Shown here: piece after piece, positions 10,252 through 42,093 of the stretch
Layout: the number at the start of each line of letters is the position of its first letter
Numbering within the stretch: position 1 is the first letter of the stretch
Sequence record: PQ478073.1
Reading direction: 5' to 3' (one strand)
From: a phage
Length of the DNA stretch: 64,000 nt
The notes under the pieces: generated by a model
Database searches by the model: none
Told to the model about the DNA's origin: nothing
The model's input: the letters and a program-made list of their open reading frames with translations, nothing else
Made by a program: the position numbers and the translations under genes

Positions 10252-10292
10252 GGATTGTACCTATTGGATTTAAACATGGAGAGTAAAATACA

Positions 10293-21085: not shown

Positions 21086-21186
21086 ATCAAAAATCGCACT
21101 TTTTAAAGCTTTTAAAAAAGGCGATTTTATTCAGTACTAAATAATATCATACTTTATACGAATGTAATATATCTATGGAGGATATA

Positions 21187-22035
21187 ATGGCGAATTTAAA
21201 ACTACTACAAGAAGCAATTGCGGCGTTTGCAAATGGCGAACAAGATATTGCTGATAAAAAAATGCGTAAGTATTTCGTTGAGCAAGCTCAAGAAATTAAC
21301 AAACAACTAGAAGAAAGCATGGAAGATGAAGACGACGATGAAGATTGTGAAGTCGAAGTTAAAGTCAAAGATGAAGAAAAGCTTGACGAAGATTTTGATG
21401 TACAACCAGACGAAGGTCTAAATGCTGAAATCGAATACACCCTTGGTGAAGAAGATGAAAGTGCAGAAGAAGAAGTTGAATTCTCTGCTGATGCAGATGG
21501 TGACGGTGAAGACGATGTTGACGTTGAAGTGAAAGCTGATGCTGATGTTCCTTCCGAAGACCAATGGGAATCAATCCAAGATGCTTTCCGTGGCCTACAA
21601 CAAATGTTTGATGAAATCGGTGACGGTGAAGTTGATCTAGATTCTGAAGAAGAAGTAGAAGATAGCGAAGAAGAAGTTGGCGTTGACGGTGACGACGAAT
21701 TTGCTGATGTTGAATTCGGTGATGAAAAATTCGGTGAATCCTTCAAACTAGAAAAAGTTGCTCCAGTTGATAAGAAAGAAAAAGCTGGCACTCATTCCAA
21801 ATCTCCAGTAGCACCAGAAGCTAAATCTCCAGTAGCAGGAGCAGAGCCAGTTAAATTCGCTAAGAAAACTGACCAAGCACCATTACTAGACCTAGATGAT
21901 AAATCTGTTCTACCAAAAGATAGTCTAGATCTTGGTAAAAATGCTCGCGGTGAAATGAAAGATGTTAAAGCACCAAAAACTACTGCATCTAATTCTAAAT
22001 CACCACTAAGCAAAGCACAACCTAAACTAAAATAA
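21187..22035 (+). CDS. highly acidic prohead core/scaffold protein
   Basis: Long D/E runs; GGAGGA RBS before ATG at 21187; conserved TAAATAATATCATAC motif upstream. Confidence 0.5.
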   Translation: MANLKLLQEAIAAFANGEQDIADKKMRKYFVEQAQEINKQLEESMEDEDDDEDCEVEVKVKDEEKLDEDFDVQPDEGLNAEIEYTLGEEDESAEEEVEFSADADGDGEDDVDVEVKADADVPSEDQWESIQDAFRGLQQMFDEIGDGEVDLDSEEEVEDSEEEVGVDGDDEFADVEFGDEKFGESFKLEKVAPVDKKEKAGTHSKSPVAPEAKSPVAGAEPVKFAKKTDQAPLLDLDDKSVLPKDSLDLGKNARGEMKDVKAPKTTASNSKSPLSKAQPKLK

Positions 22036-22055
22036 ATATCTGAAAGGAGATCATT

Positions 22056-22679
22056 ATGAGTAGTATGATTCGTGAATGGTCTTCATTCAATGATTCTAAA
22101 GTTGTTTTGGAACATCGTGATAATGGATTTGGTGGGCGTGACTGCTATCTTCGTGGTATTGCTATTCAAGCCGACCAACGAAATTTGAACGAGAGAATTT
22201 ACCCTTTATCTGAAATTACAAGGGCAGTAAATAACATGAACCAGCGTTTAGCTAAAGGTGAAAGCATTCTTGTTGAATGTGACCATCCAGAAACACTAAC
22301 TATTAACCTAGACCGAGTAGCAGCAATGATTACTAAGGTTTGGATGGAAGGTGCTAATGGTATGGCAGAAATCAAACTACTTGATACTGCACATGGTCAA
22401 AATATCCGTAAAATGCTAGAGGCTGGTGTAAAACTTGGTGTAAGTTCTCGCGGTTCCGGTAACGTTGATTATAATGGAATAGTTTCTGATTTTGAAATTA
22501 TCACTATTGATATTGTTGCTCAACCTAGTGCTCCAGAAGCATACCCAACAGCGGTATTTGAATCTCTGATGAGTAAGTACGGATCACCTTGTAATAGTTC
22601 TAAAAAAATCACTGAATCTAAAAAAGTAAATAATTTAGATTCTGAAATATACGATTTTTTCAAGAAATTAAAAGGTTAA
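22056..22679 (+). CDS. 21: prohead core protease (gp21-like)
   Basis: 207 aa; ECDHPE and LGVSSRGSG candidate His/Ser catalytic sites; position between core proteins and scaffold. Confidence 0.65.
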   Translation: MSSMIREWSSFNDSKVVLEHRDNGFGGRDCYLRGIAIQADQRNLNERIYPLSEITRAVNNMNQRLAKGESILVECDHPETLTINLDRVAAMITKVWMEGANGMAEIKLLDTAHGQNIRKMLEAGVKLGVSSRGSGNVDYNGIVSDFEIITIDIVAQPSAPEAYPTAVFESLMSKYGSPCNSSKKITESKKVNNLDSEIYDFFKKLKG

Positions 22680-22689
22680 CATTTTAAAA

Positions 22690-22697
22690 ATATAAAT
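22690..22697 (+). promoter_or_regulatory. late promoter box TATAAATA (scaffold gene)
   Basis: Exact TATAAATA ~50 nt upstream of ATG; overlaps 9-bp palindrome. Confidence 0.5.
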
Positions 22698-22745
22698 ATC
22701 TGTATGTTGAAGTACAGATATTTCAGTACTTAAAGGAGAGAACGA

Positions 22746-23861
22746 ATGTCTAAATTAGAAAAGCTTCTAAAAGAATCATCTCTTTCTGATGAGGCAAAAC
22801 AGCTAATTCAGGAAGCATGGAATGAAGAAAAGAATACACTAGCCGCAGAGATGCGTGAAGAAATGAAAGGCCGTTATCAGCAAGATTTGGCTGAACTAAC
22901 CGAAGGTTTGAACACTATGGTTACTCAAGTCATTGCTGAAGAAATGGGTGCTGTATATGAAGAGAAAAAACGTCTCGTTGAAGATCGTGTAACTCTACGT
23001 AAAACACTAAGCAATTTCTCTGCGTTTTCAAACTCTGTTTTGGCTGAAGAAGTTAAACAAATGCGTAAAGAACGTAAGCATCTTCATGAATGCATGGGTA
23101 AATTCGTTAATTTTTCTAACGGTATCCTAGCAGAAGAGCTAAAAGAATTCCACACTGAAAAACGTCAACTAGTTGAAACTCGCGTTAAACTACTTGCTGA
23201 AGGTTCACGTCAAATTGCTGAAGCTCGTAATAACTTCATCAAACGTACATCTGAAAGTGCTGCTAAATATATTGCAGAAACCACTCAGAAGAATCTATAT
23301 GCGTTGAAACAAGATCTAGTGGAAGCAAAACAAAATATGTTTGGTCGTAAAATCTTTGAAGCATTTGCTCAAGAGTTTAATGTCAAACAATTTAATGAAA
23401 ACTCATTGCTACGTTCCCTAACTGAATCAATTAAATCTAAAGAAGATGAAATTGCTCAAGTTAAGCAAGAACTACATGAAACTGCTAATGCCGTTAAAGC
23501 TGCTAAAACCAAACTACGTATTATGGAAGATGCACAAGCACGTAATGCGATTATGTCTGAACTAGTAAAACCACTAACTGCACAGCAAAAACAAATTATG
23601 GAATCCCTTCTAGCTACTTCACCTACTGAAAAGCTTAAAGAAGATTTCAGCAAGTACCATAAGTCAGTACTTAACGGTACTAAAGTAAATGAATCTGCTA
23701 CCACTCGTCAAGCAGTTCAGTCTTCCGCTAAGAAAACTCTTGCAGAAGGTAAAGTAATCACTGGCAACCGTCAGGCTATTGTTGAAAGCGAAGAAATGAC
23801 CGCTGACGATATGGCATTCCTAAAAGAACTCGATGTTCTTTCAGGTATCAATAAAAAATAA
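22746..23861 (+). CDS. 22: prohead scaffold protein (gp22-like)
   Basis: 371 aa, charged and helical; TATAAATA box at 22690; immediately upstream of capsid gene. Confidence 0.55.
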   Translation: MSKLEKLLKESSLSDEAKQLIQEAWNEEKNTLAAEMREEMKGRYQQDLAELTEGLNTMVTQVIAEEMGAVYEEKKRLVEDRVTLRKTLSNFSAFSNSVLAEEVKQMRKERKHLHECMGKFVNFSNGILAEELKEFHTEKRQLVETRVKLLAEGSRQIAEARNNFIKRTSESAAKYIAETTQKNLYALKQDLVEAKQNMFGRKIFEAFAQEFNVKQFNENSLLRSLTESIKSKEDEIAQVKQELHETANAVKAAKTKLRIMEDAQARNAIMSELVKPLTAQQKQIMESLLATSPTEKLKEDFSKYHKSVLNGTKVNESATTRQAVQSSAKKTLAEGKVITGNRQAIVESEEMTADDMAFLKELDVLSGINKK

Positions 23862-23899
23862 ACATTTTAAAGCATTTTAATAATCAAATTTTTCAGTTC

Positions 23900-23907
23900 T
23901 ATAAATA
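23900..23907 (+). promoter_or_regulatory. late promoter box TATAAATA (major capsid gene)
   Basis: Exact TATAAATA within conserved TAAATAATATCATAC motif, 46 nt upstream of ATG. Confidence 0.55.
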
Positions 23908-23952
23908 ATATCATACTGAAAAACGAATATAACATCTTTAAGGAGATATATA

Positions 23953-25128
23953 ATGTCACAACTACTAAATGAATCCAAATGGGTAGCAGTAAAAGAGAAA
24001 CTAGTTGAAGGTCTACAGGGTACTCGTAAGTCTGTAATGGAAACTGTTCTTGATAACCATCGTAAAGTTATGCTAACTGAATCCGCAACTTCTGGTGCAA
24101 CTACCGCTGGTAACATCGCTACTCTAAACAAAGTGATTCTACCAATTATGCGTCGTGTAATGCCAACCGTTATTGCTAACGAAATCATCGGTGTTCAACC
24201 AATGACTGGTCCAGTTGGTCAGATCCACACCCTACGTGTGCAATATGCTGATAACGCACCTGGTGTTATCGCTGGTGAAGAAATGCTTTCTCCATACAAA
24301 ATCGCTAAATCCTACTCTGGTGATCTAAATGCGGATAATAGCAACCCACAAGCTGCTCCTACTAGCCAACTAGAAGGTACTATGGGTCGTCGCGTTAACA
24401 TCCGTATTCTACGTGAAACTGTTGAAGCGAAATCTCGTCGTCTATCTGCACGTTGGACTGTTGAATCTGCACAAGATGCTCAATCCCAACATGGTGTTGA
24501 CGTTGAAGCAGAACTAATGGCTGCAATCGCTCAAGAAGTTACCGTAGAAATCGACCAAGAGCTACTAAGCCGTCTACGTGCACTACCTGGTGCTGCTGCT
24601 GTAACTTATGACCAATCTAAAGTTACTGGTGTTGCAACCTTCGTTGGTGATGAGCACGCTGCTCTAGCAACTCTAATTAACCGTCAAGCAAACGAAGTTG
24701 CTCGTCGTACTAAGCGTGGTGCTGCAAACTGGGCTGTTGTTTCCCCAACTGCACTAACCATTCTACAATCTGCTACTACTTCTAGCTTTGCACGTACCAC
24801 TGAAGGTACTTTCGAAGCACCAACTAACGTTAAGTTTGTAGGTACTCTAAACAGCACTATGCGTATTTTTGTTGATACTTATGCAAGTGATGCAGAAGAT
24901 ATTCTAATTGGTTATAAAGGTAATGCAGAAACTGATGCTGGTGTGTTCTATTGCCCATACATCCCACTAATGGCTTCCGGTACTGTAATGGACCCTAACA
25001 CTGGGGAATTGGTCACAACTTTCTTAACCAGGTATGGTTATGTTCAGTTGACCGATAGCACCAGTTCACTAGGTAACGCTGCGGACTACTACAGCAAAAT
25101 CGCTATCAAAAACGTTACTTTCATGTAA
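23953..25128 (+). CDS. 23: major capsid protein, gp23/gp24 family
   Basis: VIANEIIGVQPMTGPVGQIHTLRVQY, VEAKSRRLSARWTVESAQD and IGYKGNAETDAGVFYCPY match recalled T4 gp23; strong high-expression codon bias; TATAAATA at 23900. Confidence 0.85.
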   Translation: MSQLLNESKWVAVKEKLVEGLQGTRKSVMETVLDNHRKVMLTESATSGATTAGNIATLNKVILPIMRRVMPTVIANEIIGVQPMTGPVGQIHTLRVQYADNAPGVIAGEEMLSPYKIAKSYSGDLNADNSNPQAAPTSQLEGTMGRRVNIRILRETVEAKSRRLSARWTVESAQDAQSQHGVDVEAELMAAIAQEVTVEIDQELLSRLRALPGAAAVTYDQSKVTGVATFVGDEHAALATLINRQANEVARRTKRGAANWAVVSPTALTILQSATTSSFARTTEGTFEAPTNVKFVGTLNSTMRIFVDTYASDAEDILIGYKGNAETDAGVFYCPYIPLMASGTVMDPNTGELVTTFLTRYGYVQLTDSTSSLGNAADYYSKIAIKNVTFM

Positions 25129-25174
25129 TTGTAATAGATTTAAAAGATTTAATCAAAAAAAAATAAAAACAATA

Positions 25175-25204
25175 GGGACTCTTCGGAGTCCCTTTTCTTT
25201 TTAT
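25175..25204 (+). terminator. intrinsic terminator after major capsid gene
   Basis: GGGACTC-ttcg-GAGTCCC then TTTTCTTTTTATT. Confidence 0.65.
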
Positions 25205-25214
25205 TAAAAAACCC

Positions 25215-25243
25215 TTGACACAATGTTCTGGAATGTATATAAT
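25215..25243 (+). promoter_or_regulatory. consensus sigma70 promoter (TTGACA-17-TATAAT)
   Basis: Perfect -35 and -10 hexamers with 17-bp spacer, 32 nt upstream of ATG at 25276. Confidence 0.6.
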
Positions 25244-25275
25244 ACGCACATACACGAAAATAAAGAGACAAAATT

Positions 25276-26373
25276 ATGCCAAACGTAAGTATCAACAAAG
25301 AAGAGTTTATCAGCAAAATGACTGCTAAGTATGGTGAATTTGATTTCAGTACTTTAGTATTCAAAGCAAGTAAGACAACAGTGAAATGTAACAAGTGTGG
25401 AAAAGAAAACACCAAACCTGCACTTCGTCACATTGCATGTACATGTGCATCATGTTATTCAAACATGTCACAACGTTCAAACAACGACACATTCATCAGT
25501 ACTATAGAAACTAAATTTGGAAAAGATAAATTCAAATTTGATAAACTAAATTACACTAATGCTATATCAAAAGTAACAATTTTCTGCACAGATGAAGATC
25601 ACAATGATTACTTTGAAATTACACCCAATAAATTTCTTTCTGGTAAAGGATGCCCCGTATGTAATAAAAATGAAGCATACAGTACTGAAGAGTTCAAAGA
25701 AAAAGTAAAAGATAATTATGGTGATTTATTGGATTTAACTAACACGGTGTATGTAAATCAAAAAACTAAAGTAACTGTGTATTGTAACGCAGGTAATCAT
25801 GAATGGACAGTTGATCCAAAAACTTTACTTGTTGGTAAGACTGGATGTGGTACATGCTCCGGTAAAGGCGGTCGAAGTACTGAACGTTTCATTGAACTTG
25901 TGTCGCCTATCCATAACCATAAGTATGATTATAGCTTGGTGGATTACAAGACTAGTGATGAACATGTGGATATTATTTGTCCTGAACATGGTGTCTTTAA
26001 ACAAATACCCAAATCTCATATGGCAGGAAGAGGATGTCCATCATGTGGTGAGTATGGTTATCAACCATCAAAGCCTGGATATTTCTATGTACAAAAACTA
26101 TCTAATAACTCAAAAGTCGTTTACAAATACGGAATTACCGGAGACATGAAGAGACGAATTCATGAACAAAGTCGCAATTCTGAGTTCGAGCATGAATTAC
26201 TGGTAGAACGTTACTTTGAGGATGGTAATAAACCATTATTATTGGAAAAGTTTATCAAGCAATACATTGAAAGTGGTGTTGTAAGTACTGAAGAGTTACC
26301 GTCAGGATTTACTGAAACATTTGATGCTAAGTATCTTGAAAGTGTTTTAGAAATTGTAAATACTTTTAAGTAA
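25276..26373 (+). CDS. zinc-ribbon repeat protein with C-terminal T5orf172 (GIY-YIG-like) domain
   Basis: Five CxxC modules (CNKCG, GCPVCN, GCGTCS, GCPSCG...) then GYFYV...VYKYGIT...RR; perfect TTGACA-17-TATAAT upstream. Confidence 0.55.
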   Translation: MPNVSINKEEFISKMTAKYGEFDFSTLVFKASKTTVKCNKCGKENTKPALRHIACTCASCYSNMSQRSNNDTFISTIETKFGKDKFKFDKLNYTNAISKVTIFCTDEDHNDYFEITPNKFLSGKGCPVCNKNEAYSTEEFKEKVKDNYGDLLDLTNTVYVNQKTKVTVYCNAGNHEWTVDPKTLLVGKTGCGTCSGKGGRSTERFIELVSPIHNHKYDYSLVDYKTSDEHVDIICPEHGVFKQIPKSHMAGRGCPSCGEYGYQPSKPGYFYVQKLSNNSKVVYKYGITGDMKRRIHEQSRNSEFEHELLVERYFEDGNKPLLLEKFIKQYIESGVVSTEELPSGFTETFDAKYLESVLEIVNTFK

Positions 26374-26396
26374 ACAATCTAAAGGAGTTGACACGG

Positions 26397-26747
26397 ATGT
26401 TAACTGTATACAAATTTAACAAAGAAGAGTACTTAAAGAGTCAGTACTCAAATATAGAAATAAATGTTCCTTATGGTACGTTAGTTGGATATGATGAAGC
26501 CACTGAAACATTGTATTATAATGATGATAGATTGGATTATAGTTTAGATTCATTCATTGAAGATATACTTAATACACATACTGAAGATATGTTGTATGAA
26601 GAATACATAGACCATTATAGAGAACGTATGTCGGTGCTGCATTCTGATGCTCCTGTACTAAACATAGCACAAGAACCATCGGAATTTCAGCCACATAATC
26701 CTTTTCAACGTTTAATTGATATTGGTTTAAAATTCACTATTAGTTGA
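26397..26747 (+). CDS. hypothetical acidic protein
   Basis: AAAGGAG RBS 9 nt upstream of ATG at 26397. Confidence 0.5.
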   Translation: MLTVYKFNKEEYLKSQYSNIEINVPYGTLVGYDEATETLYYNDDRLDYSLDSFIEDILNTHTEDMLYEEYIDHYRERMSVLHSDAPVLNIAQEPSEFQPHNPFQRLIDIGLKFTIS

Positions 26748-26786
26748 TAGATAAATATCTCCATATTAATGATGGAGATTGAATCT

Positions 26787-27095
26787 ATGTCACAGATATG
26801 TTATGTTATAATAAACTCTGCATGGCCTGACTATGTTAAGATTGGTTTCACTTCTAAATCTGAAATGACAGAGCGTTTGAGAACGTATCAGACAGCTACC
26901 CCGTTTCGTGATTTTGAAGTTTATCATGAAGTTCACTTTGAAGACGCACGTTTAGCTGAAAAAGAGATACATAAAAGGCTTAAACAAATGAATGCAACTA
27001 GACAACCAAACACAGAGTGGTTTAAAATGTCTAAAAAGATAGCAGCAAACATCATTGATTCTGTGTGGGATGATATGGATAACGACTTGCTATAG
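26787..27095 (+). CDS. T5orf172-domain protein (GIY-YIG-like)
   Basis: CYVIINSAWPDYVKIGFT...ERLRTY...EWF. Confidence 0.55.
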   Translation: MSQICYVIINSAWPDYVKIGFTSKSEMTERLRTYQTATPFRDFEVYHEVHFEDARLAEKEIHKRLKQMNATRQPNTEWFKMSKKIAANIIDSVWDDMDNDLL

Positions 27096-27135
27096 GAATA
27101 AATATAGTATATATTAATCATAAAGGGATTTATAC

Positions 27136-28746
27136 ATGAGCATAAGTTTTAATAACCCATTGGATACAATGACCAGTACTGGTGCTAATGGATCTTTAGA
27201 ACTAATAGTGCTTGGTGGTACACCAACTAACCCAAGACCTATTCGTTTTAATTCGTCATCAGTTATTATACCAGTACAAACGTTACCTACTGGTGAACAA
27301 GGTGCAATGGTTTTTGATCGAAGCGAATTAGTTTTGAAGTATCATAACGGTACAAGTTGGATTGCAGTATATGATACTGATACTATTTTGGAACCAATTA
27401 GAATTTCATTAGATGAAGTAAACAGAAAATTAAATTTAAAAGTAGAAAGTGTAACATACAGTAGCAGTACTGTTCCTAGTGCAAGTATTAGTGGAACAAA
27501 CTTAAACATTGTATTCCCTACTGCTTCTAGTGGTGGTTCTGGACCAACTGGTCTTTACACTTCACTTAAACCTGGTGCTATTACACAATATTCATTGACT
27601 TCTGGTCAATCTGTTGCTAGTATACGTGAACAAATGTCAGGGCAATCGAATGGACAAAGTGGACGAAACGGTTCACAAGGTGCTCCGTGGAAAACGTCTG
27701 ACGGTTGGTGTTTTGCTGATGGTATGTGGTGGCAATGGGAGGGGGAAAATGGTACAATTACCAAACAAGTACCAAACCTTAACCAAAACGCGTATTTAAA
27801 AGGTATAACAACATCAGGTGTAACTAAAACTGATAGTGTTATTGGTAGTAGTGGTAACATTAGTGGAACTGTATTGAGTGTTGCCCAGTTACCATCACAC
27901 TCATTTAGTTTTAGTGGAACCACTGGTGCTGCTGGTCGTCATGGTCATAGTCAAGCACTAAAAGGTATGGACCGTAGTGGTCTAAATGCGTTAACTTCAA
28001 GTAATGATAACGGTATACCAACTGTAATCAATAACATTAACGAAGCACCAGACCACATTCACTCATTTAGTGGAAACACTAACACACTTGGTGGAAACCA
28101 ACCACACTATCATGGTATTAGCAACATTGATGTGGAACACTTTAACGTTGCATACCTATATAACATTGCTGAATCTAACGTCGCATTGAGTGAAAAAGTT
28201 GCAAACACTCGTTATGTACTAAAAACTGGTGATACAATGACTGGTTCATTGACTATTGCAAACAGTGCGTCAATTAAGTCAAATGATACATCATTAGTTC
28301 TATATTTCCGTAACGCAAGCGGTGGTGAGCGTGCGGCAGTGTATCATAACTCTTCAAATAATACATTGAGATTACGTTCCGGTGGAGCAGAAGTTACTGT
28401 AAACTCTTCTGGTACTTTAGCTGCTCCATCATTAACTGTTTCTAACAACTCAGCTACTGTTGGTGGTAAAAATATTGTTCGTTCAATTAACGGTACTGCT
28501 GCTGATGCTAGTGGCAACGTTACTTTGCAAATTAGTACTAATAACGTACAAAGTATTCGTTTGAGTGCACGTATTGAAACAAGTAAAATACCTGATTCTT
28601 CATGGACATATACACCAGAAGGTGCATTTATGGATGGCGTATGGATTTCTGTTAATGGTAGTTCAGGCACTCACTTAGAACGAATTAGTTATCGCTATGT
28701 TCAAATGCAAATAAATGGTAACTGGGAAACAGTACGTCAACAATAA
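27136..28746 (+). CDS. tail fibre protein (receptor-binding, HxH motifs)
   Basis: 536 aa; S/T/G/N-rich; repeated HxH motifs (RHGHS, DHIHSF, HYHG) as in T4 fibre tips. Confidence 0.65.
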   Translation: MSISFNNPLDTMTSTGANGSLELIVLGGTPTNPRPIRFNSSSVIIPVQTLPTGEQGAMVFDRSELVLKYHNGTSWIAVYDTDTILEPIRISLDEVNRKLNLKVESVTYSSSTVPSASISGTNLNIVFPTASSGGSGPTGLYTSLKPGAITQYSLTSGQSVASIREQMSGQSNGQSGRNGSQGAPWKTSDGWCFADGMWWQWEGENGTITKQVPNLNQNAYLKGITTSGVTKTDSVIGSSGNISGTVLSVAQLPSHSFSFSGTTGAAGRHGHSQALKGMDRSGLNALTSSNDNGIPTVINNINEAPDHIHSFSGNTNTLGGNQPHYHGISNIDVEHFNVAYLYNIAESNVALSEKVANTRYVLKTGDTMTGSLTIANSASIKSNDTSLVLYFRNASGGERAAVYHNSSNNTLRLRSGGAEVTVNSSGTLAAPSLTVSNNSATVGGKNIVRSINGTAADASGNVTLQISTNNVQSIRLSARIETSKIPDSSWTYTPEGAFMDGVWISVNGSSGTHLERISYRYVQMQINGNWETVRQQ

Positions 28747-28756
28747 GGAATGTGTA

Positions 28757-29272
28757 ATGCAACTAACAAATTTTAAGATGTATGAAAAAGAAGGTGGTAA
28801 TCCTAATTCTTTGTATATGATGTCCGATGAAGGTATGGATTGGTATGAATCTCGTGAATTGTTTGACATTAATAAAGCAAAATTTATGTATGATATTAAC
28901 GGTTTAATTGTTTCAGCATCATATAACATTTATGATCTAGTACCTTTAGGTTTTAGTGTTTCTGAAATTGAATATGATGGTGATATTAACAAACTTTATG
29001 GTATGGTTTACGATGGAAATACTATTCATGACTATATTGAAACTAAAGAAGAAAAAATTGAACGCCTAAAAAATGAATTATCTAATTTGAAATACATTGC
29101 AATTCAAGAACTTGGACACTTAAAAACTGCTATGGATCTTGAGTTAGCAACTGATGAAGAAGCTGTATTGTTTGTAAAATTGAAAGATTATGTAACGCAA
29201 TTGAATTCAATCAAACCAGCAGACATGATTAAGAAAACATTTTCATTTCCAGTTAAACCGGAAAAAAAATGA
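28757..29272 (+). CDS. putative tail fibre assembly chaperone
   Basis: Overlaps end of fibre gene; AAGGAA RBS; position typical of fibre chaperones. Confidence 0.4.
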   Translation: MQLTNFKMYEKEGGNPNSLYMMSDEGMDWYESRELFDINKAKFMYDINGLIVSASYNIYDLVPLGFSVSEIEYDGDINKLYGMVYDGNTIHDYIETKEEKIERLKNELSNLKYIAIQELGHLKTAMDLELATDEEAVLFVKLKDYVTQLNSIKPADMIKKTFSFPVKPEKK

Positions 29273-29298
29273 GACAACACGTAAAGACGTGATACAAT
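29270..29298 (+). promoter_or_regulatory. promoter-like element of TGAGACA family
   Basis: TGAGAC-17-TACAAT; overlaps stop codon; hairpin immediately downstream makes function uncertain. Confidence 0.3.
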
Positions 29299-29302
29299 TA
29301 AG

Positions 29303-29337
29303 TCATCTCACCGATTGTGGTGAGGTGACATTTTTTT
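29303..29337 (+). terminator. intrinsic terminator after fibre chaperone gene
   Basis: TCATCTCACC-gattgt-GGTGAGGTGA hairpin then T7. Confidence 0.5.
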
Positions 29338-29362
29338 GAAAACACACATGGAGAAATACAAA

Positions 29363-29665
29363 ATGGCTAAATCTAAAAAAGAAGTTAAAGTTGAAATTCG
29401 TGATCTAAACGATGAACAACGTAAACGTCTCGGTGACGCACTTAACAACATTGTTGTACAACTAACTTTCATTGATGATACCAAAGCATCCTTATCTGAT
29501 TTTGTTTCTAGTGTTTCTGATGAACTTGGTATCGATGCATCTGATATCAAACAAGCTGCACAACGTATGTACAAAGGTGATTACTTTGACAAACAAAATA
29601 AACTCGATAATATCGAAACTATTCTTAGTGTTACTAATAATCTTCCACAAGCAGATGATTACTAA
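29363..29665 (+). CDS. small DNA-binding protein, possibly DsbA-like
   Basis: DELGIDASD...Y segment resembles recalled T4 DsbA DELGVDGKMF; GGAG RBS; terminator follows. Confidence 0.3.
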   Translation: MAKSKKEVKVEIRDLNDEQRKRLGDALNNIVVQLTFIDDTKASLSDFVSSVSDELGIDASDIKQAAQRMYKGDYFDKQNKLDNIETILSVTNNLPQADDY

Positions 29666-29687
29666 TTAGTACTAAAATATATTAAAT

Positions 29688-29716
29688 AGCCTCCAATGAC
29701 GGAGGCTTTCTTTTTA
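29688..29716 (+). terminator. intrinsic terminator
   Basis: AGCCTCC-aatgac-GGAGGCT then TTCTTTTT. Confidence 0.6.
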
Positions 29717-29744
29717 ACTTAATAAACGTAAGGGAATACAAACG

Positions 29745-32700
29745 ATGTATATCGATGCTTATATGGAACGTAAACGTACTGGTGATATTCTTCATGTAGT
29801 TGAACGTAAGAATGGTAAACGTATTCTACGCGAATTAGATCCAGTATATGAATATTATGTTGAATCCCCACAAGGAACACATAAAACTGTTTATGGTACA
29901 ATGGCTAAACATTTTGAGTTTCAAACTCAAGCTCAAATGAATAAAAGTGTAGAGCAACACAAAAGTGAAGGTCTACGTATTTTTGAAAGTGATTGTAACA
30001 TTACATTTAAAACATTAGCTAAAGAATATATGGGAAAAGGTTCACCCGATTTGAACATCGTGTTCTTCGATATCGAGACTGATTTCCATAAGAAATTTGG
30101 TTATGCTCCACCATCAGACCCGTTTAACCGAGTAACCGCTATTTCTCTATATCAATCATGGACTGGAAAGGATTATGTACTTACTTTACCACCTGCTGAT
30201 ATGGAAATTTATGAAGCACAAGATATTGTTCGCCAACTAAATGAAGAAACAAACGATCCTAACAGTACTGTAATTTTATATACAGACGAAAAGGAAATGT
30301 TTATGGAATTCTTTAGTTTAATTGATGATTCTGATGTTATTTCAGGATGGAATAGTGAATTCTTTGATATTCCATATATGATCAATCGAACTAAAAAAAT
30401 CTTCAATGAAGCAACAACTGCTCGTTGGTGTTTATGGAATAAAAAACCAAATTCACGTGAAGCAGACAACTTTGGTAAAACTGTTCAAACATATGATCTG
30501 GTAGGTCGCGTCCATCTTGATTATTTGGCTTTGTATAAGAAACATGCTGGTCAAGTTGAACAATCTTATAAACTAGATTATATTGCTGAAAAAGTAACTA
30601 AAGAAAATAAAGTATCCTATGAAGGTTCATTGGATAAACTTTACAGAGAGGATTACATTACTTTCTTGCGTTATTCTAAACAGGATAGTATTCTTCTTAA
30701 AAAGATTGATGCTAAATGTGACTATATCAACCTACACAATCGACTTGCACACAAAGAATGTGTACTTATCAGTACAACAATGGGTTCAGTAGCACTAATC
30801 GACACTGCTATTATCAACTTAGCACATACTCGTGGTGAAGTTGTTTTCAACAAAGCACCGAAAGATGATCTTGAGTTTGATCCAGAAATGGAATATTATG
30901 GTGAAGATGGTGAAGAAGAAGATGAGAAAATTAGTGCAAAAGCAGCAGGTGCATGGGTACAAGATCCAGTACTAGGACTTGTAAGTGACCTTGGGTGTAC
31001 TGACTTTAACTCTCTTTACCCTACTGTTCTACGTACTTTGGGTATGAGTACTGAATGTATTCTTGGTCAATTACGTCAAGATTACACCGATGCGTATCTT
31101 GCAGCTAAAATCCAAGAACAGAAGAACAAATCTAAATCTAAATCATTTGAACCAGATTGGACTGCGGCATGGCATGGTTTATTTGCTGCTGTTGAATTTA
31201 CAATGGTTCATGAAAAGTCAGAAGAAACATTGATTGTTGATTTAGAAGATGGGAGTTCTTTTAAAGCAACGGGCAAAGAGCTATATGATATTATTTTTGC
31301 AGAAGATAGTACTATTGTACTTAGTGCAAACGGAACACTTTTTGATAAGTCTAAGTCTGGTGTAATTCCTGACATTCTAACTCAATGGTATTCTGAACGT
31401 AAAGCACAGCAAAAAATGGTCATTGACTACAAACATATGTATACTGATGGTTGGGAGTTTAATGGCTATGAAAAAGTTGAACCACTACTATCAAACTATA
31501 CCCCTGGTACAATGTTTAGAACTAATATTCATGATAATGATCCTGTATACTTACTTCGTAAAGAAATTGGTAAAGGACAGTGGGATGAAGTTGCTAAGTT
31601 GATTGTAGAAAACGGATTAGTACTAAAAGATGGTCGTATTTTCTGTCCTAAAGAAGAAAAAGATTACTTCAAACAACGTAGTGCTTTTTGGAAACAGAAC
31701 CAACAGATTCGTAAGATTCTTCTAAACAGTCTATATGGTGCACTATTGAACAAAGGTTCTCGTTTCTTTGACAAACGTTTAGGTCAATCTGTAACATTAA
31801 CTGGACGTTCTATGACCAAACATATGGCAAGTCGTATCAATGAAATTACTACTGGTGTATATAACCACCAAGGTGGTTCAGTAATTTATGGTGATACTGA
31901 CTCAGTTTACTTTAGTGTAACTCATTATCTGAAAGAACAAGGTATTCCATATAATCTATCTAAAGAAGAGATTGTTGATATGTATATTAAAATTGGTGAA
32001 GAAGTTGGTGAATCTTTCCCATCATTTATGCATGAGATGTTCAACACTGGTATTGAAAAAGGTAAGATTGTTGGTGCAGACCTTGAGATGGTTGGTTCAC
32101 GTGGCCTATTCTTGAAGAAAAAACGTTATGCAATTCTGAAGTACTGGGAAGATGGGTTCCGTAAAGATATTGATGGTAAACCAGGTGAAATCAAAGCGAT
32201 GGGTCTTGAAATTAAACGCTCAGATACGCCAAAATACATCCAGAACTTCCTAGAAGAGACTCTAATCGCATTACTGGTAGGTGAGAGTGAACAACAGCTA
32301 AAACAGCGTGTACGTGAGTTTAAGGACGTATTTAAGGATATGCCTGTACATGAAAAAGGTTCACCAAAAACTGTAAAAAACTACACTAATTTAGAGGCTG
32401 AATATCAGCTAACTGGTAAGTGTAAAGTTGGTCACGTTCTTGCTGGTATCCAATGGAACCGCCTACGTGAAGTTTATGATGATAAATCTGTACCAGAAGT
32501 AACGGATGGAACAAAAGTAATTGTCTGTAACTTAAAAGATAATCCTATGGGAATTAAAGCTGTTGGTTATCCAATTGACTGTGTTGAGTATCTACCAGAA
32601 TGGTTCTTGGAACTACCATTTGATACTGAAAAAATGGAAGAGATTGTTCTAACTAAAAAATTAGAGAATATTTTTGGTATTTTGGATATGGATATTGGTA

Positions 32701-32750
32701 TTCATGAAAAAAGTACTGCGTCAGTAAACAATGGATTCTTCACTTGGTAA
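29745..32750 (+). CDS. 43: DNA polymerase, family B (gp43)
   Basis: Exo I FFDIETD, pol motif YGDTDSVYF, LYPTV, KILLNSLYG. Confidence 0.9.
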   Translation: MYIDAYMERKRTGDILHVVERKNGKRILRELDPVYEYYVESPQGTHKTVYGTMAKHFEFQTQAQMNKSVEQHKSEGLRIFESDCNITFKTLAKEYMGKGSPDLNIVFFDIETDFHKKFGYAPPSDPFNRVTAISLYQSWTGKDYVLTLPPADMEIYEAQDIVRQLNEETNDPNSTVILYTDEKEMFMEFFSLIDDSDVISGWNSEFFDIPYMINRTKKIFNEATTARWCLWNKKPNSREADNFGKTVQTYDLVGRVHLDYLALYKKHAGQVEQSYKLDYIAEKVTKENKVSYEGSLDKLYREDYITFLRYSKQDSILLKKIDAKCDYINLHNRLAHKECVLISTTMGSVALIDTAIINLAHTRGEVVFNKAPKDDLEFDPEMEYYGEDGEEEDEKISAKAAGAWVQDPVLGLVSDLGCTDFNSLYPTVLRTLGMSTECILGQLRQDYTDAYLAAKIQEQKNKSKSKSFEPDWTAAWHGLFAAVEFTMVHEKSEETLIVDLEDGSSFKATGKELYDIIFAEDSTIVLSANGTLFDKSKSGVIPDILTQWYSERKAQQKMVIDYKHMYTDGWEFNGYEKVEPLLSNYTPGTMFRTNIHDNDPVYLLRKEIGKGQWDEVAKLIVENGLVLKDGRIFCPKEEKDYFKQRSAFWKQNQQIRKILLNSLYGALLNKGSRFFDKRLGQSVTLTGRSMTKHMASRINEITTGVYNHQGGSVIYGDTDSVYFSVTHYLKEQGIPYNLSKEEIVDMYIKIGEEVGESFPSFMHEMFNTGIEKGKIVGADLEMVGSRGLFLKKKRYAILKYWEDGFRKDIDGKPGEIKAMGLEIKRSDTPKYIQNFLEETLIALLVGESEQQLKQRVREFKDVFKDMPVHEKGSPKTVKNYTNLEAEYQLTGKCKVGHVLAGIQWNRLREVYDDKSVPEVTDGTKVIVCNLKDNPMGIKAVGYPIDCVEYLPEWFLELPFDTEKMEEIVLTKKLENIFGILDMDIGIHEKSTASVNNGFFTW

Positions 32751-32761
32751 GGAGTAATAAT

Positions 32762-32911
32762 ATGGTTATTGTAAATGAAATTGAACTAAACTATGATGAA
32801 GTAAACGATACTTTCACTAATGAGATGTTGAATCTTACTGAAGAAAGTGTAAATGAGGCATGGGAAAAATATGTAGAATGGACTTCATTACAAGGTAAAA
32901 ATAATGAGTAA
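32762..32911 (+). CDS. small hypothetical protein (49 aa)
   Basis: AAGGAG RBS then ATG at 32762; below the 60-aa ORF-track cutoff. Confidence 0.35.
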   Translation: MVIVNEIELNYDEVNDTFTNEMLNLTEESVNEAWEKYVEWTSLQGKNNE

Positions 32912-33200
32912 TATATATAAGCGTATTGGTGAAGTATTAGAAGGTAATGGTATCATTAATTCTGTACTAGCATATGATAATGATGAAGAAGTAGTTCTAA
33001 TTGGTGCGGGTTTTACTCGCACTGGTTCAGTGGAAGTTGACGGAGAGATTGCTGATGTTTACACTCTTGTGAAAAAGCGTAAAGTTGTTTTTGTCGATGA
33101 TGTACATACATTAAAAGACTTGAAAAAATTACGCGATAAAATTGGCATGAGTTCTACAATTGATAAGCCTTATCTTCAACGTTGGAATACAAAATACTGA
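32904..33200 (+). CDS. hypothetical protein
   Basis: 98-aa ORF overlapping upstream small ORF. Confidence 0.5.
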   Translation: MSNIYKRIGEVLEGNGIINSVLAYDNDEEVVLIGAGFTRTGSVEVDGEIADVYTLVKKRKVVFVDDVHTLKDLKKLRDKIGMSSTIDKPYLQRWNTKY

Positions 33201-33208
33201 TAAAAAAT

Positions 33209-33238
33209 TGAGACAAGCATCATTTTTGAGATATAATG
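33209..33238 (+). promoter_or_regulatory. early/middle promoter, TGAGACA family
   Basis: TGAGAC-18-TATAAT upstream of 33302 gene. Confidence 0.45.
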
Positions 33239-33301
33239 GTGCTTGTAGTAATCTTACATAAAAACATTTTTTGATTAACAAATAAAACGGAGAATTATAT
33301 A

Positions 33302-34033
33302 ATGGATCTACGCAACGTACTACGTGACCTCGTAAACACAACCAGTGGTATTGACTTCTCTTGTATTGCAGTAAGCAGTGAAGACCGTGGTGAAGGACAA
33401 CGTGTATATCTAGAAGCGTACACAGATGACCGAACTCTTGTAATGCGAGCATATACTAAAGAAGATGTTCCTGAAGTTCAGGGTCGTTTTGGCTTAGGTA
33501 ATCTAGGTCTTCTTCAGGGTCTAATGTCTCTAAAAACATACAGTACCGAAGGAACCACAATCACATCAAATGTTAAAGATGGTTCAGTTAAAAGTCTGGC
33601 ATTTAAATCTGAAGATGCAAGCACTACATTTATGGTACAAGCTGAAAAACTTATTCCAGTTCAACCACGTTTTCATGAACAACCATATGACGTACAGGTT
33701 ATTCCTAGTGCAGCAAAAGTTCAGGAACTAAAGAGTTTTTCTGGTGTATTTAAATCTTTTAGTTCTCTTGTAACTCCGTATACTGAAGGCGACACCCTAT
33801 ACTTTCACGTTGGTGAGAAAAACAAAAGTAACCACGTTGGTTCTCTAGCTTTTTCTAAAACTGAAGGTGAATTAGGTCTTGGTTTTGGTTATAATATTGA
33901 TCGCGTACTTCAAGCATTATCTCGCGTATCTAATGCCGAATCAGTATCACTTGGTATTACTAAAACTGGTATGCTAAATGTAACACTAGATACTGGAATT
34001 GCAGTATACAAATTTTACGTAACAGGCTGCTAA
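33302..34033 (+). CDS. hypothetical protein, possibly sliding clamp (gp45-like)
   Basis: 243 aa; weak pattern similarity to recalled gp45; family-type promoter at 33209-33238. Confidence 0.3.
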   Translation: MDLRNVLRDLVNTTSGIDFSCIAVSSEDRGEGQRVYLEAYTDDRTLVMRAYTKEDVPEVQGRFGLGNLGLLQGLMSLKTYSTEGTTITSNVKDGSVKSLAFKSEDASTTFMVQAEKLIPVQPRFHEQPYDVQVIPSAAKVQELKSFSGVFKSFSSLVTPYTEGDTLYFHVGEKNKSNHVGSLAFSKTEGELGLGFGYNIDRVLQALSRVSNAESVSLGITKTGMLNVTLDTGIAVYKFYVTGC

Positions 34034-34097
34034 TATAAATAACGGGGAACACTATGTTCCCCAAATTAGTTTGATTTAAAAAGTAAAGGAATACAAA

Positions 34098-34304
34098 ATG
34101 CCATTATATACATATCGTTGTGAAAAAGAAGAATGCAAACATAGCATGGAAAAAATTGTTAAAATTGCAAATCGTGATGAACCTCATGATTGTCCTAAAT
34201 GTAATGGTGAAAAAACTATGAAGTTGGAAGTGTTCACTCCAGGTGATAAGGGTGCTAATCTTTATTTCCGTGGAAAATGGTTTGCAAATACTGGAGGTTA
34301 CTGA
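34098..34304 (+). CDS. FmdB-family zinc-ribbon protein
   Basis: MPLYTYRCEKEEC...CPKCNG. Confidence 0.6.
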   Translation: MPLYTYRCEKEECKHSMEKIVKIANRDEPHDCPKCNGEKTMKLEVFTPGDKGANLYFRGKWFANTGGY

Positions 34305-34305
34305 T

Positions 34306-34605
34306 ATGAAAATTAAAATGATTAATGATTACGTTCTTGTTCGACAAATTGAAGCACAGAATAAAAGTACTGGTGGTATTATTCTAGGTAATGTTGAACC
34401 ACCATGTATTGGGATGGTAATTTCCGTTGGTCCAGGTAAAATTCTTCCGAACGGACAACTTGCAGAACATAATATTAAAGAAGGTGATATGGTTGTGTTT
34501 GGTCGTTCATCTTTGAACACACCACTGACTGAAGATCTTGGTGGCGGCGAAGATACATATTATGTAATGAAAATCGAAGAGATTTTTGGTAAGAAAAATG
34601 GCTAA
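34306..34605 (+). CDS. GroES-like co-chaperonin (gp31 functional analogue)
   Basis: INDYVLVRQ...KSTGGIIL...GMVISVGPG...GDMVVF matches GroES; GGAGG RBS. Confidence 0.75.
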   Translation: MKIKMINDYVLVRQIEAQNKSTGGIILGNVEPPCIGMVISVGPGKILPNGQLAEHNIKEGDMVVFGRSSLNTPLTEDLGGGEDTYYVMKIEEIFGKKNG

Positions 34606-35323
34606 AAAGAAATTTATTCCATTTTGGATGGTCCCTGCTCACTGGGGACTTTCTGGAAAGGCAAAAGAGATAGCTAAAGCATACTACTACAATGATGATT
34701 ATGAAGCTGATATGAAAGTTGCTGAATTGACATATCTAACTCCATATGAAGTTGAAGTGGCCCAATTGGATATTAAAAAGAAATATAGCGTAATTGGAGA
34801 TTTGGAATATCTAATTGCTGTACTTGATGTTGAACTAAAATATTCTAAAATTACTCGTGAACAGTATGATGTTAAAGTTCTTGATGCAAAACTAAGTATT
34901 GGAGTTATTACAGAAAAAGAATATGATATGGAAATCATTGAGTTAATGCCAGAAGGTGATGAAAAAAGGCTTAAGGCTATTGAATTTGCATATCGTTACG
35001 ATGAAATCACACAAAGTGAATATTCTAAGGAAATATACACACTTCGTAAAGAACCTTGGATTGATTTGGATGTTGTTCTTGATCCTGAAACTAATGAAGT
35101 TGAGTTTGTATTTGACTATAATGAATATTTCTGGAAAAAGTTGAAAGCTGAAGGTCATCCAGGAAATGATGAAGAAGAAATTATCGATAACTTTGTGAGA
35201 GACTTGGGGCGTAAACTTGCTACGGATGATTTCAGTGATGATTACGACACAAAGCTGGTGAGTGCGAACGAAGGATTAGACAAGCTACCTGGTTTGCCTG
35301 AAGGATTTCGTTCATATAGATAA
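34598..35323 (+). CDS. hypothetical protein
   Basis: 241-aa ORF overlapping end of GroES-like gene. Confidence 0.5.
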   Translation: MAKKKFIPFWMVPAHWGLSGKAKEIAKAYYYNDDYEADMKVAELTYLTPYEVEVAQLDIKKKYSVIGDLEYLIAVLDVELKYSKITREQYDVKVLDAKLSIGVITEKEYDMEIIELMPEGDEKRLKAIEFAYRYDEITQSEYSKEIYTLRKEPWIDLDVVLDPETNEVEFVFDYNEYFWKKLKAEGHPGNDEEEIIDNFVRDLGRKLATDDFSDDYDTKLVSANEGLDKLPGLPEGFRSYR

Positions 35324-35327
35324 CATA

Positions 35328-35362
35328 TAAAAAAAGGAGAGCAAATGCTCTCCTTTTCTTTT
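35328..35362. terminator. bidirectional intrinsic terminator
   Basis: A-run, GGAGAGC-aaat-GCTCTCC, TTTTCTTTT; lies between convergent genes. Confidence 0.6.
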
Positions 35363-35370
35363 GAAAAATA

Positions 35371-36060
35371 TTAAACCAATGCTGGGATGTATTGGAAAAG
35401 TTTAACACCGAAATCACCTGCTGCATCAGCAGATTGGGAACGTAGGTAAACTTCGGTAACACCATCTTTAGCAAGTAGTGGAACACCAGTTAGATCATCA
35501 ATTAGTAGACGGCCTTCTTCGGATTCAGTACTTGGTACACCTTGTGGTGATTTAAGATCTTTGTTAAAGACACCAGCACGTTCAACTAGGAAGGTAACAA
35601 CAGAAGCATCAGCAATACTAACTGAACCTGCACTCAATACACCATCAGGTGCGTTGGTGAAACCAGTAACTGGAAATACTTCAAGACCATTACCTGCGAT
35701 GTTAGAGGTAGCGATGATAACCGCACGTTGTTGAACAACATCGACAATACGTTTAACGTTAGTTTGTGCTGCATAAGATGCATTGTAATCAGCTTCTAGT
35801 GTGCCAAGAACAAATGCAGTTCCATCAATACGTTTGATACCTTTATCATTTAGATATGCTAGAATTTCTTCTGGAATATCAGTGTTTAGAAAACGTTGTA
35901 GACCAGCATAAGAAGAAACTGCACCAGTAACTAGAACGTTTACGTTTCCTAGCTTACTGATAGCAATGGATGCTAGGGCGTTAGTGCCACAAAAGTAACC
36001 TAGAATACGTTCAAAGGAATAACCATTGATACGTTCAAAAGAAGTATTAGTATATGACAT
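35371..36060 (-). CDS. abundant late protein, paralogue A
   Basis: 229 aa; shares QQRAV...T(S/T) and ER(A/Q)(G/D)VFNK(D/Q) with adjacent gene; high-expression codon usage. Confidence 0.6.
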   Translation of the reverse strand: MSYTNTSFERINGYSFERILGYFCGTNALASIAISKLGNVNVLVTGAVSSYAGLQRFLNTDIPEEILAYLNDKGIKRIDGTAFVLGTLEADYNASYAAQTNVKRIVDVVQQRAVIIATSNIAGNGLEVFPVTGFTNAPDGVLSAGSVSIADASVVTFLVERAGVFNKDLKSPQGVPSTESEEGRLLIDDLTGVPLLAKDGVTEVYLRSQSADAAGDFGVKLFQYIPALV

Positions 36061-36074
36061 AATCTATCCTCCTA

Positions 36075-36674
36075 TTATAGTTGAACAGGAAGAGCAGCAC
36101 GTACTTTAATTGCTACAGCAGTAGATGCACCTGCATCACCAACACCATCAGTACCTTGACTTACGAAAGTTTTGGTACGGAAAACTTTAGCTTGAGCGAT
36201 AGACTTAGCTAGGTCAACAGTTGGATCAACTGGAGCAGGACATGCTGAACCAGGACGAACTTCTTGCTTGTTAAATACGTCTTGACGTTCACAGATGAAA
36301 GTCAATGCAACAGAATTAGCACCACCTGCTACATCAGCACCACTAGTGCCGAACGCAACTACGTTTGGATTAGCATTTTTGAAATCAGCAGGAATAACAA
36401 CTTCTGAATCAAGAGCTAGTAGAGAGGTAGTAACTAGAACTGCACGTTGTTGTAGTAGTTGGGTAACCATGAATAGGTTATATTGAGCATTACTTAGAGC
36501 AGTTTGATACGCTTCAGCTTGAACATCAGAACCGTCAGAAGTAACTTTGGTAGTACCTAGTTCAACATCAGTTGGTAGATCGATTACGATGGTAACGAAA
36601 CCGTTATTACCACCCCACCATTCGCGAGCAACGCTAGACATACCATAGTTACGGTTAAAAGAATTAAGACTCAT
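36075..36674 (-). CDS. abundant late protein, paralogue B
   Basis: 199 aa; paralogue of 35371-36060; conserved ATAAATAATATCATA motif ~100 nt upstream on minus strand. Confidence 0.6.
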   Translation of the reverse strand: MSLNSFNRNYGMSSVAREWWGGNNGFVTIVIDLPTDVELGTTKVTSDGSDVQAEAYQTALSNAQYNLFMVTQLLQQRAVLVTTSLLALDSEVVIPADFKNANPNVVAFGTSGADVAGGANSVALTFICERQDVFNKQEVRPGSACPAPVDPTVDLAKSIAQAKVFRTKTFVSQGTDGVGDAGASTAVAIKVRAALPVQL

Positions 36675-36797
36675 GAAAATCTCCTTGTCAAATTTTGTGC
36701 AGGTATATCCTGCTTAAAGTTATTTATCAAAAAATATCACTAGCATTTAAATTTACTGAGATATTTAATGAATTTCTATGATATTATTTATCAAATC

Positions 36798-36835: not shown

Positions 36836-42093
<5,258 letters not shown>

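Follow-up and report, generated by a model that had tools for sequence, protein, structure and literature searches.

The window analysed here, a stretch of 64,000 nucleotides (nt) from the phage sequence record PQ478073.1, carries a repeated 15-nt motif (TAAATAATATCATAC) upstream of the gene for an acidic virion structural protein, the major capsid gene and a pair of genes for two paralogous virion proteins. We consider it likely that the motif is a T4-type late promoter, dependent on a gp55-like sigma factor and read together with its start-site region. The DNA of the window is 98-100% identical to that of the Escherichia phages 121Q, PBECO4 and CRJP21 and has a G+C content of 34.6%. Judging from its sequence, the phage is an Asteriusvirus (121Q/PBECO4-like) of the RaK2-like group of jumbo myoviruses, whose genomes comprise roughly 350 kilobases (kb). 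Genome-wide counts refer to a 347.8-kb composite of a 121Q-type genome, made up of the window and the 121Q segments L008-L010 and L017-L019, of which 90% is coding.

Exact copies of the 15-mer are located on the plus strand at 21138-21152 and 23902-23916, and the acidic-protein and capsid copies have 16 nt in common (TAAATAATATCATACT). The third copy (TAAATAATATCATAG, 36790-36776, minus strand) deviates by a single mismatch, the last C being replaced by G. All three copies are intergenic and sense-oriented. When at most one mismatch is allowed, there are three sites in the window as compared to 0.03 expected from dinucleotide shuffles, and the composite genome contains only the same three (0.17 expected), with no near-exact copy in coding sequence. 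With up to two mismatches the composite contains eight sites (6.25 expected), six of them intergenic. These six are the three near-exact copies and three others, which precede the gene for a 428-amino-acid (aa) virion protein (40706), a spanin gene and the gene for an Ig-domain virion protein. With up to three mismatches, the 13 sites in the window correspond to the chance level (9.2 expected). The three near-identical copies, which had been pointed out in a previous sequence-only reading of the window, were thus recovered as two exact copies and one with a single mismatch. The 17-nt ranges given there identify the right sites and are off by 1-2 nt. The full octamer TATAAATA is present at the capsid copy only, where it begins at 23900, outside the range assigned to it; the acidic-protein copy reads CTAAATA and the third one GATAAATA.

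The cores at the three sites (TATAAATA, GATAAATA and CTAAATA) represent the T4 late element or accepted variants of it (NATAAATA or CTAAATA), and their orientation and placement are those of late promoters. Variants of this type have been documented (PMC1524935; PMC5259590). For instance, the late promoters of Aeh1, a T4-like phage of Aeromonas, have been predicted to read CTAAATA (Nolan et al. 2006, PMC1524935), and several predicted late promoters of phage CBB carry it as well (PMC5259590). In the 121Q-type genome, CTAAATA is the core at the acidic-protein site (21137) and at 16 other candidate sites, being a minority variant beside ATAAATA. The latter occurs 55 times in the composite, both strands considered, and 30 of these copies are intergenic and aimed at a gene start not more than 130 nt away; the window contains 22 copies, of which about 16 are intergenic and correctly oriented. 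Over the 47 candidate sites obtained when CTAAATA is included, the information content upstream of the core (-19 to 0) does not exceed 0.2 bit at any position, and thus there is no -35 element. Moreover, scans for sigma-70-type promoters (TTGACA-like and TATAAT-like elements, 16-18 nt apart) yielded no sense-strand site at the three motifs, which rules out such a promoter there, and the overall counts were at or below the shuffle expectation. Some CTAAATA matches elsewhere are parts of sigma-70-type early promoters (TTGACTAAATA...). The tRNA region of 121Q contains three near-identical copies of cTTGACTAAATAGTTCAGTACTGTATAAT (L008 49191 and 49670; L019 429), sigma-70-type promoters with CTAAATA inside the -35 region, which would be false positives in simple late-promoter scans.

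The phage also encodes a gp55-like late sigma factor, which presumably reads the ATAAATA core. The gene at 10293-11132 (plus strand) matches phrog_12791 ('sigma factor for late transcription', 3e-154) and phrog_234 ('late sigma transcription factor', 8e-18), and it is annotated likewise in 121Q, GAP32, CBB and RaK2. The protein has 279 aa; the phrog_234 match spans residues 125-262, and about 124 residues at the N-terminus lie outside the gp55-like core. Searches of Pfam and of PDB sequences with the protein gave no match, including none to the solved gp55. The sequence-only reading had taken the three sites for T4-type late promoters, and this assignment is supported by the core variants, the lack of a -35 element, the orientation towards virion genes and the gp55-like sigma gene. 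The sigma gene itself has no ATAAATA in front of it; the upstream region contains an extended -10-like element instead, TGTGGTATAAT / GCTATAAT (10200-10292; also in loci L002, L005 and L006). Middle-type promoters of the form 'TGAAACG ... TATAAT' have been published for CBB and GAP32; the element fits them, and therefore the late sigma factor would be made from a middle promoter.

In T4, the late octamer TATAAATA occupies positions -13 to -6 (PMC1524935). This is in agreement with a cryo-electron microscopy structure of the gp55 open complex, in which pockets accommodate the flipped-out bases of positions -12, -9 and -8, those at -12 and -9 being adenines (PMC7892883). The promoter P23 in the gp55 structure reads TATAAATACTCCT-G(+1)ATACTG (PMC7892883), and the native P23 sequence was confirmed in a T4-type genome. 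By the T4 geometry, the motif comprises a core (A/C)TAAATA from -12 to -6, an AT-rich stretch ATATC from -5 to -1 and a putative initiator C(-1)A(+1)TAC. The late promoter predicted for the acidic-protein gene (21137-21152, plus strand) consists of CTAAATA (21137-21143), the spacer ATATC (21144-21148) and ATAC, with the predicted +1 at the A in position 21149. At the capsid promoter (23900-23916, plus strand), TATAAATA (23900-23907) is followed by ATATC (23908-23912) and ATAC, and the predicted +1 is the A at 23913. For the distal promoter of the paralogue pair (36776-36792, minus strand), the parts are GATAAATA (36792-36785), ATATC (36784-36780) and ATAG, with the predicted +1 at the A in position 36779. 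The extra bases thus cover the spacer and the predicted start, as in the transcription start or leader element that had been among the options of the sequence-only reading.

The start-site region is a general trait of the late promoters of this phage. Of 30 ATAAATA promoters, 24 have a purine as the sixth base past the core, and in 20 cases this base is an A; with the CTAAATA sites included, it is a purine at 38 of 47 sites and a C at only one. YATA (Y, pyrimidine) is found 3-5 nt past the core in 14 of the 30 late promoters, as compared to 5.9% of random intergenic positions (binomial p = 4e-10) and to 4 of 25 ATAAATA copies outside late promoters. Similarly, TATAAATA sites of a T4-type phage have a purine at the predicted start in 14 of 20 cases and T or A at -1 in 18 of 20, and several of them read T-ATA. 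The initiator is therefore not specific to the three genes, since it is present in nearly half of the late promoters and is kept at other orthologous ones. The 'seven further bases' of the motif are a drifting AT-rich spacer followed by what appears to be a general pyrimidine-ATA initiator. The suggestion that they form a special device of the three genes does not hold, as the same arrangement is seen at other orthologous promoters and at T4-type ones, and nothing points to a separate protein-binding site.

The orthologous upstream regions of the window and of 11 other phages were compared. These 12 phages form six lineages: the window; 7t3 and fENko-Kae01; GAP32, CBB, XbC2, Kaldavass and fHe-Yen9-04; XaC1; RaK2 and Muenster; and a marine Vibrio phage. 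At the acidic-protein and capsid promoters the core is kept, the A directly after it (A at +8) is mostly kept, and a pyrimidine-flanked ATA at the predicted +1 to +3 is invariant. The three bases between A(+8) and the initiator vary across the lineages (TAT, TGA, AAG, TAA, TCA and CTT). Conservation of seven further bases, as originally proposed, thus applies across genera to the A at +8 and to Y-ATA-Y, but not to the middle bases, which drift between lineages. The exact 15-mer is present at the capsid promoter of the Xanthomonas phage XaC1. Orthologues of the distal paralogue-pair promoter keep ATAAATA-W-T-N-N-Y-A, and the YATA start region is kept at the orthologous late promoters of gp597, the scaffold, the tail fibre and the baseplate hub. 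In all genera examined, the motif copies flank conserved, syntenic head genes. More distant environmental relatives were taken from IMG/VR (80 loci, L146-L223 range; capsid proteins 64-70% identical). In nearly all of these loci, the gap between the end of the scaffold gene and the capsid start codon measures from a few nt to a few tens of nt and contains no ATAAATA. The dedicated capsid promoter is therefore confined to the RaK2-like clade. The exact 16-mer ATAAATAATATCATAC was also searched in IMG/VR; among the matches listed, there were single chance matches in unrelated viral contigs.

A further question is why the copies are identical. In the window, the upstream regions of the acidic-protein and capsid genes resemble each other over their full 100 nt (global score 39 versus 6.4 +/- 2.2 in shuffles, z = 14.5), and the resemblance persists when the sequence preceding the motif (z = 6.3) and the leader (z = 5.5) are considered separately. 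The 15-mer is the best-preserved part of this shared cassette of about 100 nt, which consists of a hairpin/T-tract, the promoter, the start site, an A-rich leader, ATATCT and a strong Shine-Dalgarno sequence. In other phages the similarity of the two regions ranges from strong to weak, with z = 12 in Asteriusvirus A4, 8 in the Vibrio phage, 4.5-5.1 in 7t3, 3.8 in EJP2, 3.7 in XaC1, 3.0 in RaK2 and 1.0 in GAP32. The third copy has the 15-16-nt core in common only, and its flanks are dissimilar. The spacer of the capsid promoter reads ATATC in the window and ATAAC in A4, EJP2 and 7t3; the exact identity of the 15-mers is recent because the A4 promoter has ATAAC. These patterns point to a cassette that may have been homogenised, or that converged or was under parallel selection, in some lineages.

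According to the proposed mechanism, the RNA polymerase of the host, equipped with the late sigma factor of the phage, would recognise (A/C)TAAATA as the -12 to -6 element, ATATC would serve as the AT-rich stretch between core and start, and transcription would begin at the A of C-ATAC, that is, at a pyrimidine(-1)/purine(+1) step followed by TA. The likeness of the three sites would have two reasons. On the one hand, ATAAATA-A-N3-Y-ATA-Y would be a form preferred family-wide before the main virion genes. On the other hand, the variable spacer bases would have become the same in the lineage of the window, for the acidic-protein and capsid genes as part of the cassette of about 100 nt.

Genome-wide, there are six copies of the relaxed motif [AC]TAAATAA-N3-YATA, and all six are intergenic, sense-oriented and located before virion structural genes, namely those for the acidic protein, the capsid protein, the paralogue pair, the tail sheath and two virion proteins of 428 and 193 aa. 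The copy belonging to the 428-aa protein gene (40742-42028) is a fourth related late promoter (ATAAATAATATTATA, 40706-40720, plus strand), which has two mismatches and lies 29 nt before the gene; the predicted promoter of the 193-aa protein gene (59860-60441) is CTAAATAATCCTATA (59824-59838, plus strand). Virion mass spectrometry in relatives allows a comparison with protein amounts. In phAPEC6, the coverage is 70% for each of the two paralogue homologues, 75% for the capsid protein and 17% for the acidic protein, and in CBB it is 91% and 56%, 68% and 15.5%, respectively. The paralogue-pair homologues (56-91%) are thus comparable to the capsid protein, and the acidic homologues are low (15-17%). 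The capsid and sheath proteins have been published as the most abundant virion proteins of phAPEC6. The link of the extension to high expression is correlative, being based on the coverage in the relatives and on the six relaxed sites before virion genes, and the extended form may give a higher output.

Several observations weigh against the proposed mechanism or against its link to abundant proteins. The first tail-tube gene (552) has ATAAATAATATAAAGA, which lacks YATA, and the spanin gene carries the near copy CTAAATAATATCATCA; because of these two genes, the link to protein abundance is loose. Over the 47 candidate sites, C is not the most frequent base at either -1 or +4, and the CTAAATA of the acidic-protein gene departs from the T4 consensus at two positions. 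Moreover, homologues of gp33 and gp45 are reported as undetected in CBB (PMC5259590), and the mechanism of activation may therefore differ from that of T4; a clamp-loader gene is annotated in 121Q. Finally, no start-site, RNA-seq, promoter, timing or abundance experiments were found in the literature on 121Q, PBECO4, phAPEC6, JP4, fEgEco12, fENko-Kae01 and RaK2-like phages, and the PA5oct study describes sigma-70-like motifs only. The start site and the 'late, very high expression' of the three genes are therefore inferred.

Among the alternatives, the identity beyond ATAAATA could be functionless, a by-product of cassette copying by gene conversion or duplication between the acidic-protein and capsid genes, with the match of the third site being partly due to chance in AT-rich promoter surroundings. 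The similarity over the whole 100 nt in the window is what copying would produce, and its strength in A4 yet weakness in EJP2, 7t3 and GAP32 indicates that homogenisation was lineage-specific; the different A4 spacer speaks for a recent event. By a rough estimate, one pair identical over 8 extra bases among about 47 AT-rich promoters is not extremely unlikely. However, the third copy shares the core without the flanks, A(+8) and Y-ATA-Y have been kept in six lineages despite many substitutions elsewhere, and YATA is enriched in unrelated late promoters. Cassette copying accounts for the identical spacer but not for the conserved positions, and we regard it as an unlikely explanation of the motif. 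Chance repetition of an AT-rich 15-mer might be suspected in DNA of such low G+C content, where the count with up to three mismatches is at chance level and where, among the matches listed, the 16-mer turns up in many unrelated viral contigs. Nevertheless, the excess of sites with at most one mismatch in both window and genome, together with their intergenic location, sense orientation and orthologous conservation, effectively refutes this explanation, to which we assign next to no probability.

It is also conceivable that a dedicated phage activator or co-activator binds to the extension ATATCATAC and raises the transcription of the most abundant virion genes only. Near-exact copies are found only before virion structural genes, and the spacers are alike within genomes (ATATC/ATATC in the window, ATGAC/ATAAC in 7t3 and GAGTT/AAGTT in the Vibrio phage), which would fit co-evolution with a trans-acting factor; the extra N-terminal residues of the late sigma factor could be viewed in the same way. 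However, positions -5 to +4 lie inside the RNA polymerase footprint and the melted bubble, which is a poor place for a separate activator, ATATCATAC is not palindromic, no candidate factor was identified, and the conserved bases, which half of all late promoters possess, are those expected for start-site selection. A separate activator site is thus very improbable. A role of the conserved bases in RNA, as a common 5' end (AUAC...) or leader affecting mRNA stability, processing or translation, is hardly more credible and, in our estimate, marginally less so. ACGAAT is common to the acidic-protein, capsid and sheath leaders, the capsid leader start ATACTGAAAA resembles that of T4 P23, (G)ATACTGAAG, the acidic-protein leader of EJP2 starts with CATACTGAAAT, and there are conserved hairpins in other late leaders of the region. 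Against this, the transcript would include no more than about 4 nt of the 15-mer, and the acidic-protein and capsid leaders are predicted to be unstructured (z = +0.5 and -0.1), which makes an RNA-level role unlikely; ACGAAT is not conserved outside Asteriusvirus. Finally, the promoter could be an extended one in a stricter sense, with A(-5) and C-ATAC being read specifically and the inverted repeat around the capsid promoter being extruded so that the promoter is offered single-stranded to the sigma factor. We consider this improbable. If it were true, the extra N-terminal region of the gp55-like sigma factor would be an example of a reader of the extension, co-evolution of the extension in each genome would explain the similar acidic-protein and capsid spacers in the window, 7t3 and the Vibrio phage, and extrusion would take place on supercoiled or replicating DNA, with the promoter in the 17-nt loop of the conserved repeat.

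Taken as T4-type late promoters with a general initiator, the three sites have different surroundings. Directly upstream of the acidic-protein promoter and after a gene for a 75-aa protein, there is an intrinsic-terminator-like hairpin followed by a T-run (21090-21128, plus strand; RNA fold -12.4 kcal/mol, z = -4.9). This hairpin is AT-rich and long, and its stem bases differ between genera with complementarity being kept. The acidic virion structural protein, a homologue of 121Q gp600 (21187-22035, plus strand), indeed deserves its name, having 282 aa and an isoelectric point of 4.06. Its gene is located between the portal and prohead protease genes and is the first of a block with the protease and scaffold genes. 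ACGAAT recurs at 4 of the 47 candidate promoters (about 0.6 expected), in the predicted leaders of the genes for the acidic protein, the capsid protein, the tail sheath and gp582 (21158-21163, 23924-23929; L010 ~37810).

The gene for the major capsid protein, which is T4 gp23-like, is located at 23953-25128 (plus strand). Its promoter is bracketed by a 9-base-pair (bp) perfect inverted repeat (23889-23923, plus strand) with the arms TTTTTCAGT (23889-23897) and ACTGAAAAA (23915-23923) and a 17-nt loop (fold -6.7 kcal/mol, z = -3.0). By the T4 geometry, the loop corresponds to -15 to +2 and covers the DNA that is melted in an open complex. At the capsid promoter, the repeat is perfect over at least 8 bp in four of the six lineages (the window, 7t3, the GAP32 group and the RaK2 group), and XaC1 and the Vibrio phage have degenerate versions. 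The arms of the GAP32 group, TTTTCTGT and ACAGAAAA, contain one compensatory swap (CAGT/ACTG to CTGT/ACAG). A promoter-bracketing repeat was rejected as a general late-promoter trait (mean score 6.1 versus 5.6 in shuffles), and at the acidic-protein promoter it is above chance in no lineage examined. The capsid promoter is thus the only one bracketed in this way. The late promoter of the scaffold gene (TATAAATATCTGTATG..., 22692-22730) overlaps another 9-bp inverted repeat, ATATCTGTA ... TACAGATAT, which is kept in GAP32 and fHe-Yen9-04 and imperfectly in 7t3; since the predicted start lies within its left arm, only RNA from read-through could form the hairpin. The gene 23 promoter of a T4-type phage (L020 294-301) reads TATAAATACTCCTGATACTGAAG, and its start-site 8-mer ATACTGAA is shared, with an offset of 1 nt, with the capsid promoter and leader of the window (23913-23920). 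This sharing with T4 P23 could be a coincidence or an old start or leader preference.

The paralogous virion proteins (gp618 and gp617) are encoded by two genes (36674-36075, 199 aa; 36060-35371, 229 aa) of an operon on the minus strand (35329-36674), which ends with an intrinsic-type terminator at 35360-35329. Both proteins match phrog_9326, in agreement with the paralogy noticed previously. Pfam and PDB sequence searches with the acidic and the paralogous proteins gave no match. The distal promoter lies 110 nt upstream of the operon, and a second, proximal ATAAATA promoter is located between the distal copy and the ATG (36699-36727, minus strand). It consists of ATAAATA (36727-36721) followed by the hairpin GCAGG-ATATA-CCTGC (36713-36699), of which five pairs are conserved, two of them with compensatory changes in RaK2 (GTAAG/CTTAC). 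The transcript from the proximal promoter would begin two bases before this hairpin, which looks like a stabilising hairpin at the mRNA 5' end. Elsewhere in the window, two divergent back-to-back late promoters, 16739 (minus strand) and 16790 (plus strand), are located between the baseplate-hub gene and the gene for a 734-aa virion protein. A second extended class, ATAAATATTTCTATA, is identical at 16790 (plus strand) and 3206 (minus strand) and matches the published CBB late promoter ATAAATATTTCTAT.

The promoters described here resemble the late promoters of T4 in the core sequence, the lack of a -35 element, the position before virion genes and the presence of an encoded gp55-like sigma factor. 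They also share the purine start about 6 nt past the core, usually after T or C; several T4 promoters read T-ATA, and P23 is TATAAATACTCCT-G(+1)ATAC. However, the first T of the octamer is not required in the phage of the window (ATAAATA, CTAAATA or GATAAATA), the 279-aa sigma factor is extended at its N-terminus and could not be matched by sequence to the solved gp55, and P23 lies inside gene 22, whereas the capsid promoter of the window is intergenic. T4 late promoters are activated by the co-activator gp33 and the sliding clamp gp45, whose homologues are reported missing in the relative CBB. The motif also resembles a known preference of bacterial RNA polymerase, which favours a pyrimidine at -1 and a purine at +1, the classical 'CAT' start, preceded by an AT-rich discriminator. 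C(-1)A(+1)T(+2) is located at the expected distance from a -10-like element with AT-rich sequence in between; this preference is known for the sigma-70 holoenzyme. In phage Aeh1, C is found at -12 as at position 21137 of the window; it is the rule in Aeh1, whereas it is the minority in the phage of the window (PMC1524935). For CBB and GAP32, late promoters have been predicted as ATAAATA with a downstream A/T concentration (35 sites, 14-nt MEME motif; Buttimer et al. 2017, PMC5259590). Motif, gene classes and phage group are the same, the sites of the window are orthologues of CBB sites listed in that paper, and the 14-nt motif already runs 7 nt past the core. The passages of the paper that were consulted note the A/T concentration but not a fixed-distance Y-ATA-Y, the cross-genus conservation or the near-identical copies (PMC5259590).

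The combination of hairpin and promoter also calls to mind the PeSL cassettes of T4-type phages, which Arbiol et al. 2010 reportedly described as an early promoter together with stem-loop repeats. In both cases, a unit of about 50-100 nt with a hairpin and a promoter recurs in one genome and is apparently homogenised. However, the promoter of the window is a late one, the neighbours of the copies are core head genes and not mobile accessory genes, and nothing suggests that the copies mediate gene shuffling. A mobile PeSL-like cassette was ruled out, as the copies flank conserved syntenic head genes and only two of them share flanks.

As the core motif has already been published for sister phages, the motif is an ordinary extension of a known promoter type, and no new kind of regulatory element is revealed. 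For those late promoters of 121Q/RaK2-like jumbo phages that look strongest, the comparison yields (A/C)TAAATA-A-N3-Y-ATA-Y as a refined consensus, and the predicted starts at 21149, 23913 and 36779 (minus strand) are concrete and testable. The consensus can improve the annotation of late operons in 350-kb genomes and provides compact candidate promoters for phage engineering. The conserved inverted repeat at the capsid promoter is the only feature that might lead further. The logic of T4 late promoters, including the pyrimidine/purine start followed by TA, would reach a distant group of jumbo phages.

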